Positions 1,875 through 3,265 of a stretch of 64,000 nt of DNA are shown here, one piece after another. The notes under the pieces are model-generated. The model saw only the letters and a list, made by a program, of their open reading frames with translations. It did no database searches and was not told where the DNA came from. The position numbers and the translations under genes were made by a program. The stretch is from Escherichia coli (GTDB lineage Bacteria > Pseudomonadota > Gammaproteobacteria > Enterobacterales > Enterobacteriaceae), in assembly GCF_048403405.1 (NCBI RefSeq), contig NZ_CP183135.1; one strand, given 5' to 3'. How positions within the stretch are numbered: the first letter of the stretch is position 1; every line of letters begins with the position of its first letter.

Positions 1875-1895
1875 ATGACTGGACAGCGCATTGGG

Positions 1896-2715
1896 GGCAC
1901 TGTTGCAAAGTTAGCGATGAGGCAGCCTTTTGTCTTATTCAAAGGCCTTACATTTCAAAAACTCTGCTTACCAGGCGCATTTCGCCCAGGGGATCACCAT
2001 AATAAAATGCTGAGGCCTGGCCTTTGCGTAGTGCACGCATCACCTCAATACCTTTGATGGTGGCGTAAGCCGTCTTCATGGATTTAAATCCCAGCGTGGC
2101 GCCGATTATCCGTTTCAGTTTGCCATGATCGCATTCAATCACGTTGTTCCGGTACTTAATCTGTCGGTGTTCAACGTCAGACGGGCACCGGCCTTCGCGT
2201 TTGAGCAGAGCAAGCGCGCGACCATAGGCGGGCGCTTTATCCGTGTTGATGAATCGCGGGATCTGCCACTTCTTCACGTTGTTGAGGATTTTACCCAGAA
2301 ACCGGTATGCAGCTTTGCTGTTACGACGGGAGGAGAGATAAAAATCGACAGTGCGGCCCCGGCTGTCGACGGCCCGGTACAGATACGCCCAGCGGCCATT
2401 GACCTTCACGTAGGTTTCATCCATGTGCCACGGGCAAAGATCGGAAGGGTTACGCCAGTACCAGCGCAGCCGTTTTTCCATTTCAGGCGCATAACGCTGA
2501 ACCCAGCGGTAAATCGTGGAGTGATCGACATTCACTCCGCGTTCAGCCAGCATCTCCTGCAGCTCACGGTAACTGATGCCGTATTTGCAGTACCAGCGTA
2601 CGGCCCACAGAATGATGTCACGCTGAAAATGCCGGCCTTTGAATGGGTTCATGTGCAGCTCCATCAGCAAAAGGGGATGATAAGTTTATCACCACCGACT
2701 ATTTGCAACAGTGCC
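1896..2715 (-). mobile_element. IS26: IS26 copy 1 (820 bp), flanked by 8-bp direct repeat GCATTGGG
   Basis: Terminal 14-bp repeats GGCACTGTTGCAAA at both ends; boundaries fixed by the tnpR reading frame; GCATTGGG at 1888-1895 and 2716-2723. Confidence 0.97.
1948..2652 (-). CDS. tnpA: IS26 transposase Tnp26 (234 aa from MNPFKG)
   Basis: ORF-track protein ...MNPFKGRHFQRDIILWAVRWYCKYGISYRELQEM...; the ORF track starts 6 codons upstream at a TTG. Confidence 0.95.
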   Translation of the reverse strand: MNPFKGRHFQRDIILWAVRWYCKYGISYRELQEMLAERGVNVDHSTIYRWVQRYAPEMEKRLRWYWRNPSDLCPWHMDETYVKVNGRWAYLYRAVDSRGRTVDFYLSSRRNSKAAYRFLGKILNNVKKWQIPRFINTDKAPAYGRALALLKREGRCPSDVEHRQIKYRNNVIECDHGKLKRIIGATLGFKSMKTAYATIKGIEVMRALRKGQASAFYYGDPLGEMRLVSRVFEM

Positions 2716-3265
2716 GCATTGGGTATATCAGGGTCAGCACCTTCGACCAGAACCCGGAACGGCAACTGGAAGGCGTCAAGGTTGATCGCGCTTTTAGCGA
2801 CAAGGCATCCGGCAAGGATGTCAAGCGTCCGCAACTGGAAGCGCTGATAAGCTTCGCCCGCACCGGCGACACCGTGGTGGTGCATAGCATGGATCGCCTG
2901 GCGCGCAATCTCGATGATTTGCGCCGGATCGTGCAAACGCTGACACAACGCGGCGTGCATATCGAATTCGTCAAGGAACACCTCAGTTTTACTGGCGAAG
3001 ACTCTCCGATGGCGAACCTGATGCTCTCGGTGATGGGCGCGTTCGCCGAGTTCGAGCGCGCCCTGATCCGCGAGCGTCAGCGCGAGGGTATTGCGCTCGC
3101 CAAGCAACGCGGGGCTTACCGTGGCAGGAAGAAATCCCTGTCGTCTGAGCGTATTGCCGAACTGCGCCAACGTGTCGAGGCTGGCGAGCAAAAGACCAAG
3201 CTTGCTCGTGAATTCGGAATCAGTCGCGAAACCCTGTATCAATACTTGAGAACGGATCAGTAAAT

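Follow-up and report, generated by a model that had tools for sequence, protein, structure and literature searches.

A close described counterpart of the locus considered here is the Tn21 of R100/NR1, which lies within Tn2670 (NC_002134.1). In the published organisation of Tn21, the res region lies upstream of the resolvase gene tnpR, with site III proximal (PMC7157771). A second described system is the Tn21-derived arrangement IS26-delta-tnpR-tnpM-intI1, which has been termed a 'signature' (PMC7067039, for CP021289 and pUO-SeVR1) and which, continued into dfrA17-aadA5, has been deposited as KY399741 (PMC6206278). In the window analysed here, a 64,000-nucleotide (64-kb) stretch of Escherichia coli DNA from contig NZ_CP183135.1, the tnpR gene of an R100-type Tn21 is interrupted by a complete copy of the insertion sequence IS26 that carries the identical octamer GCATTGGG on both sides. 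The reading preferred for this locus, to which a probability of roughly 0.88 can be given, is that a single canonical IS26 transposed once into nucleotides 14 to 21 of tnpR, that the resulting allele spread, and that native resolvase output is probably lost or much reduced. The interrupted gene and the inserted element are laid out as follows.

1875-1895, plus strand: tnpR codons 1 to 7 (MTGQRIG), with the ATG at 1875 and codon 7 (GGG) ending at 1895
1888-1895: left target duplication GCATTGGG, equal to tnpR nucleotides 14 to 21
1896-2715, minus strand: IS26 copy 1, 820 bp, with the right inverted repeat (IRR) at 1896-1909, the left inverted repeat (IRL) at 2702-2715 and the tnp26 coding sequence at 1948-2652
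2716-2723: right target duplication GCATTGGG
2716-3263, plus strand: tnpR nucleotides 14 to 561, from the second base of codon 5 to the stop codon

The inserted element is IS26 by its length of 820 bp with 14-bp repeats, by its IS6-family transposase, and by the 8-bp target-site duplication. Its terminal repeat, GGCACTGTTGCAAA, is perfect over 14 bp and bounds the element at 1896-1909 on the plus strand and at 2702-2715 on the minus strand; this repeat occurs 7 times in the window and has 0 matches in 100 shuffles. The tnp26 product is a single DDE transposase of 234 amino acids that scores 275.6 bits against the NCBIfam model for IS6-family transposases (NF033587, cut-off 125), and in a 100%-identical RefSeq record it carries the identifier WP_001067855.1, IS26 family transposase. 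The element is also of the canonical form, with GG at positions 613-614.

Two results carry the conclusion that this copy arrived by transposition. First, the chance of an 8-bp match at a fixed position is 1/65,536, and apart from the duplication the window has GCATTGGG at just one other place, 53810, with no occurrence on the minus strand. Second, the tnpR frame picks up at codon 8 (TAT, at 2724) immediately after the second GCATTGGG, and deletion of 1896-2723 in silico yields an open reading frame (ORF) of 186 codons plus a stop that is nucleotide-identical to the R100 tnpR (NC_002134.1, 16168-16728). A natural duplication of GCATTGGG at the tnpR site was also checked against R100/Tn21 and is not present there. 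The identical flanks are contiguous halves of one gene, and IS26 copy 1 is a true transposition product, not a recombination junction. An earlier sequence-only reading of this DNA had proposed an IS26 insertion in Tn21 tnpR with an intact 8-bp duplication, a frame that resumes directly after it, a direct insertion instead of a recombination junction, and an intact 186-codon gene upon excision, all of which hold.

The host module is equally well defined by comparison with R100, and its parts are listed below.

183-1196: intI1
1374-1398, minus strand: IRi, 25 bp at the outer end of the class 1 integron, read from the sequence and collinear with R100
1399-1749, plus strand: tnpM, the 3' part of Tn21 urf2M (EAL/DUF3330 fragment), as annotated in a 100%-identical RefSeq record
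1750-1874, plus strand: Tn21 res region, containing the native tnpR promoter-like site at 1819-1847
3266-6232, plus strand: Tn21 tnpA, 988 codons, intact
6228-6265, minus strand: Tn21 tnp-end 38-bp terminal inverted repeat, an exact match

With the insertion excised, window positions 44-7699 align to R100 positions 14334-21992 as one block of 99.92% identity, collinear through intI1-tnpM-res-tnpR-tnpA-GNAT-catA1-IS1. The module is thus assigned to Tn21 by its collinear tnpR and tnpA, its upstream res and its identity to the reference, with res placed by the published organisation. IRi adjoins tnpM at 1399, again collinear with R100, which identifies an In2-type integron inserted in urf2M; Pfam EAL and DUF3330 match the same tnpM gene in a further assembly. 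The likeness to R100 lies in gene order, in overall identity and in a tnpR sequence that is identical once IS26 is removed. The differences are that R100 has no IS26 in tnpR and retains aadA1 and a full mer end, whereas relatives of the window carry dfrA17-aadA5 and have a chrA-IS6100-mph(A)-IS26 region in place of the tni/mer end.

Only one of the two terminal repeats of Tn21 was found, namely that of the tnp end. An inverted mer-end 38-bp repeat was not found in the window or in the 11.4 kb past its left edge in p675SK2_B (NZ_CP027703.1), the closest complete relative, in which the scan extended to 69 kb and in which the integron side continues as chrA-padR-IS6100-mph(A)-IS26-blaNDM-5. The Tn21 of this window is thus incomplete, a remnant that descends from the R100 type. 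Since the examined regions hold no second terminal repeat, cointegrates of this Tn21 itself would not normally arise. The one other match to the 38-bp Tn21 repeat in the part of the relative that was read has 2 mismatches and lies to the left of the window at NZ_CP027703.1 60650-60687, between sul1 and chrA. This repeat is direct, not inverted, relative to the tnp-end repeat, and it is probably part of a chrA-carrying transposon fragment.

The effect of the insertion on the resolvase must be judged from what remains on each side of it. Translation from the native tnpR start gives MTGQRIG followed by 53 residues of IS26-antisense sequence, a product of 60 codons that ends at a stop at 2057 and is ruled out as a resolvase. 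The other 182 codons are separated from the promoter and ribosome-binding site, so resolvase output would drop, and it is probably lost or much reduced. However, the claim of the sequence-only reading that the resolvase is disrupted after codon 7 stands only for the product of the native start, because two long in-frame ORFs survive downstream.

2703-3263, plus strand: chimeric ORF of 186 codons, with a TTG start inside the IS26 IRL, encoding MQQC and then TnpR residues 5 to 186
2643-3263, plus strand: longer in-frame chimeric ORF of 206 codons, with an ATG start at 2643

In the shorter form, codon 5 (CGC) is rebuilt, its first base coming from the end of IS26 and its GC from the duplicated octamer, so that MQQC replaces MTGQ and the rest of TnpR is retained. 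The YIRVS serine motif and the conserved domain are unaltered, and the protein belongs to the serine resolvases by its catalytic domain with a YxRVS serine motif and its C-terminal helix-turn-helix. The Sin, Gin, Tn3 and gamma-delta resolvases align with residues 6-184 of the chimeric ORF (E values from 1e-24 to 4e-21), while Pfam Resolvase and HTH_7 match the 206-residue form. Because these solved recombinases align only from residue 6, the replaced residues fall outside the conserved domain. RefSeq labels the chimeric ORF a 'recombinase family protein' (WP_021532377.1). In a large protein collection the 186-residue form has been called on 435 contigs, a count to which an insertion of an IS26 variant in the opposite orientation also contributes, and the 206-residue form on 68.

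These properties raise the possibility that the resolvase has not been knocked out, and that the chimeric MQQC-TnpR(5-186) protein or its 206-residue form, made by read-through from the res promoter, might still resolve Tn21-type cointegrates. Several observations weigh against loss of resolvase and toward this alternative. The 186-codon ORF persists intact and in frame downstream of IS26, its replaced residues are peripheral to the conserved domain, and both gene callers and RefSeq name it a recombinase. A promoter scan places the native promoter-like site (TTGACA-17-TAGAGT, 1819-1847, 10 of 12 matches) still upstream of IS26, and no terminator-like hairpin was predicted anywhere across IS26 on either strand in the scanned region 1650-3400. 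Thus, from its sequence, read-through transcription combined with weak initiation at TTG or ATG is possible.

There are also features of the locus that make such expression difficult. No Shine-Dalgarno-like sequence precedes either chimeric start, at 2703 or at 2643, and a TTG codon initiates translation weakly. The native tnpR start has no strong Shine-Dalgarno match either, so its absence ahead of the TTG does not settle the matter. Transcription would need to cross about 830 nucleotides antisense to tnp26, and the choice of the chimeric ORF by gene callers is not evidence that it is expressed. Furthermore, the IS26 repeat contains a -35-like TTGCAA that is known from hybrid promoters (PMC7986276), but a promoter pairing this TTGCAA with a -10 in tnpR was rejected when neither the scan nor inspection of 2724-2731 gave an acceptable -10. 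The TTGCAA also overlaps the TTG at 2703, so any promoter derived from IS26 would start downstream of the start codon. Overall, a chimeric resolvase that is made and active is unlikely, and lost or much reduced resolvase output is the preferred reading. The further claim of the sequence-only reading, that this module should be unable to resolve its own cointegrates, is plausible on these grounds; its practical force is small, in that a remnant without a second repeat could not form ordinary cointegrates.

The same target has been used by IS26 more than once. In IncC and IncHI2 plasmids, the octamer GCATTGGG in tnpR is also occupied by the variant IS26-v1, which is oriented the other way. At least 30 PLSDB plasmids, mostly IncC (pSN254, pAR060302, peH4H and others), match the junction of tnpR 5' sequence to IRL exactly, and at least 16, among them the IncHI2 plasmid pABW_A19a, match that of IRR to GCATTGGG-tnpR. 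Two representatives, and a third insertion discussed below, can be located as follows.

pSN254 (NC_009140.1), locus 4001-4095: opposite-orientation IS26-v1 site
pABW_A19a, locus 2195-3014: opposite-orientation IS26-v1 site
example record, locus 3565-4384: IS26 at tnpR +82

The IS26 copy of pABW_A19a differs from the window copies at just two bases, a change of GG to AA at positions 613-614, and the copy in pSN254 is annotated with the same variant product as that of pABW_A19a (WP_001067858.1). This change (G184N) is what we take to define IS26-v1. That name is in use in PMC9019673, in which GCATTGGG is reported as the target duplication of an IS26-v1-mediated IncHI2 plasmid integration in Salmonella siiE; the match of octamers may be a coincidence or a hint of target preference. 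pSN254 has another mer transposon as the host, one that carries merB and an unbroken urf2M and whose 500 bp of upstream sequence are just 86% identical to the window.

The IS26-v1 plasmids (pSN254 and pAR060302 of IncC, pABW_A19a of IncHI2) therefore share with the window the octamer, the position in tnpR and the chimeric ORF WP_021532377.1, but in them the IS is flipped, so that tnpR 5' meets IRL and IRR meets tnpR 3'. Derivation of the flipped form by IS26 inversion or by homologous recombination was rejected, because both reactions keep each junction between a flank and an IS end; the flipped form is thus an independent insertion, which the different IS variant and the different host transposon also support. 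Either IS26 end, when inserted in this phase, yields the same full-length ORF, the repeat supplying the TTG and the last base rebuilding codon 5. Since the 14-bp repeat is common to the two ends of IS26, insertion in either orientation produces an identical chimeric protein.

Two insertions at one octamer in tnpR, each restoring the same reading frame, together with the third use of that octamer reported for siiE, could be taken to mean that GCATTGGG is a favoured target of IS26, that the insertion leaves the resolvase active, and that the allele persists in hundreds of plasmids through target preference together with retained function. Other IS26 insertions in tnpR bear on this proposal. A complete IS26 with its own duplication, GATCGCGC, sits at tnpR nucleotides 82-89 (e.g., CP070150 and CP030770); like the copy in the window it is complete, in Tn21 tnpR and in the same orientation, but it lies 68 bp further downstream, represents a separate event and gives no full-length chimeric resolvase ORF. 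IRL boundaries were also verified at tnpR +5, +10, +20 and +24 (locus position 2525 in four loci), besides +14, and a control query at +82 pointed, from alignment lengths only, to further boundaries at approximately +76, +79 and +89. Such a boundary search sees about 10 nucleotides on either side of the query junction, and as a survey it is not unbiased. A special hot spot at +14, which these boundaries had first suggested, was rejected, with boundary density being similar around +82. Boundaries of IS26 seem to lie close together throughout the 5' part of tnpR, and with so many events in the gene, two on one target are unremarkable. Taken as a whole, the reading of a favoured octamer, an active resolvase and persistence through both is quite improbable.

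How the allele reached its present distribution can be examined through its junctions. Searches of PLSDB were made with asymmetric queries whose IS26 part was shorter than 28 nucleotides, too short to seed a match alone; symmetric 40+40-nucleotide queries were discarded because IS26 and Tn21 pieces within about 540 bp of each other were merged, contaminating the counts. A 70-nucleotide segment covering Tn21 res and the start of tnpR is present in 1771 PLSDB plasmids, and IS26 in either orientation abuts it at the exact base in 227. For the left junction of the window (tnpR 5' to IRR), all 60 of the PLSDB matches listed are at 100% identity and coverage, with hosts that include E. coli, Klebsiella, Shigella sonnei, S. 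flexneri (plasmids of ~80 kb), Salmonella and Providencia, and the upper bound with an orientation-specific query at 80% coverage is 154 records. The right junction (IRL to GCATTGGG-tnpR) is exact in 26 of the records listed and in at most 47 at 80% coverage. Neither junction pattern had an exact match among species-representative genomes, which rarely include such plasmids, and a full-text literature search for GCATTGGG alone gave only unrelated papers.

The left junction is the one found in the published signature. CP021289 is an exact match to it, and in the IS26-delta-tnpR-tnpM-intI1-cassettes arrangement, also seen in Shigella plasmids of pKSR100 size, codons 1 to 7 end in GCATTGGG and are followed by IRR exactly as in the window. 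The signature plasmids and the closest relative of the window also have the same dfrA17-aadA5 integron context. The published form is read as the outcome of an IS26-mediated deletion or truncation, with one side left, whereas the window keeps both sides and the duplication; next to them tnpA is intact, and the tnp-end repeat and the catA1-IS1 flank of R100 are retained. Both junctions occur apart or inverted in CP095156, MW317021, CP117046, CP121148, LR890289, MK413722 and CP009231. Adjacent junctions are found in CP027703, AP022223 and AP023228, in approximately 10 complete genomes of E. coli (in one case on the chromosome) and in two further assemblies. The insertion event is therefore old, widespread, already known and in use as a marker; the contribution of the window is an unsplit copy, which is the rarer state.

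These distributions are consistent with a simple history. A single canonical IS26 would have transposed into tnpR nucleotides 14-21 of an R100-type Tn21. IS26 is reported to move by cointegrate formation only (PMC8477213). A copy-in cointegrate followed by recombination between the two IS copies, the route known for this element, would leave one IS26 with an 8-bp duplication. The ancestral allele would then have spread widely, with later IS26-mediated recombination, inversion or deletion parting the two halves in most descendants, while the IncF plasmid of the window would have kept the original arrangement with both halves in place.

Some doubt about this history comes from the fact that halves first separated and then rejoined by IS26 recombination would give an identical sequence. 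In this alternative, the adjacency seen in the window is secondary and was produced by homologous recombination or re-inversion between IS26 copies. Many plasmids do carry both junctions apart or inverted, and there is ample substrate for such exchange, in that the window holds three full IS26 copies that are base-for-base identical and a fourth lies just outside it in the relative. The copies other than copy 1 are listed here.

15045-15193, plus strand: partial IS26, the last 149 bp (positions 672-820), IRR end
30093-30912, plus strand: IS26 copy 2, identical in sequence to copy 1 and inverted relative to it, with no target duplication
33098-33917, minus strand: IS26 copy 3, identical to copy 1 in sequence and orientation, with no target duplication

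Rejoining, however, calls for two events where none is required, and the surrounding 7.6 kb is collinear with R100, as expected of an undisturbed ancestral state. No trace in the sequence separates a rejoined history from an undisturbed one, and a rejoined history is very unlikely by comparison with simple retention of the original insertion. The weakest proposal, that the matching octamers are a coincidence at an IS26-mediated junction of unrelated segments, draws on the general absence of duplications around most IS26 copies, copies 2 and 3 among them, but it needs the 1-in-65,536 match at the two halves of a single gene, and it is refuted by an excision that gives the exact R100 tnpR.

The sequence-only reading had also stated that the other two full IS26 copies have no target duplications, and the flanks agree with this. 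Copy 2 lies between CTGTCGAG and TTTAAGCG and copy 3 between AAGATGTG and CCATCAGG, which are unrelated, and for these two copies no direct or reverse-complement match was found among any of the IS26 flanks.

For an IS26 transposition into R100-type tnpR, the practical value is mainly epidemiological. The junction marks widespread IS26-bounded Tn21/class 1 integron regions, often with dfrA17-aadA5 and mph(A), and the window represents the ancestral form, still unsplit and in R100-like surroundings, which can help to order the rearrangement histories of IncF plasmids, including those of close relatives with blaNDM-5. The sequence-only reading had suggested the junction as a lineage marker. It is usable as such, but it is not private to one lineage (at most 154 PLSDB records for the left side and 26 to 47 for the right), and the orientation must be given. 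Specifically, the IS end has to be stated, because IS26-v1 occupies the same 8-bp target oppositely in the IncC and IncHI2 lineages. Care must also be taken with annotation, since the seemingly intact 186-residue 'recombinase' is an IS26-tnpR chimera; pipelines call it a recombinase, so surveys of gene content miss the interruption. The event itself is an ordinary and already described one, and loss of resolution, plausible from the arrangement of the locus, would matter little for a Tn21 remnant.

The plasmid that carries this locus is closely matched by p675SK2_B, a 173.9-kb IncFIA/FIB/FIC plasmid from an E. coli isolated in Basel. Positions 1-26345 of the window are 100% identical to it and positions 27672-38921 are 99.98% identical, the sole difference being 1326 bp that are inserted in the window. 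Beyond the left edge of the window, p675SK2_B continues with dfrA17-aadA5-qacEdelta1-sul1-chrA-padR-IS6100-mphR-mrx-mph(A)-IS26, a truncated IS30-family element and blaNDM-5. In close relatives blaNDM-5 lies about 10 kb left of the window, which makes this a lineage of hybrid plasmids that combine virulence with carbapenem resistance. On the right-hand side of Tn21, the window contains catA1, IS1, a Tn10 remnant with tet(B), and iron-uptake genes, followed by an IS26-bracketed aac(6')-Ib-cr / blaOXA-1 / delta-catB3 region, RepFIB, sitABCD and aerobactin genes. The part from 38900 to 64000 is IncF virulence-plasmid backbone with several IS remnants, and its main landmarks are as follows.

45871-46848: RepFIB
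49830-53279: sitABCD
from ~56548 onward: iucA-D/iutA

Several smaller observations concern the remaining mobile elements. The 149-bp IS26 fragment lies approximately 217 bp past an annotated IS1 transposase gene (14131-14828) and beside a truncated dsbA-like gene. Copies 2 and 3 of IS26, which are mutually inverted, are the pair that brackets aac(6')-Ib-cr, blaOXA-1 and the truncated catB3, and copy 2 truncates a Tn3-family tnpA (27684-30092). The 1326-bp insertion that is absent from p675SK2_B (26346-27671) carries the gene for an IS110-family transposase (NF033542, 341 bits) and lies within a Tn3-family 38-bp terminal repeat (GGGGTCCGCTTGGAAAACGGAA / CCCACGCTAAG) beside a truncated Tn3-family tnpA. 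Insertion into Tn3-family 38-bp terminal repeats is a known behaviour of IS4321 and IS5075.

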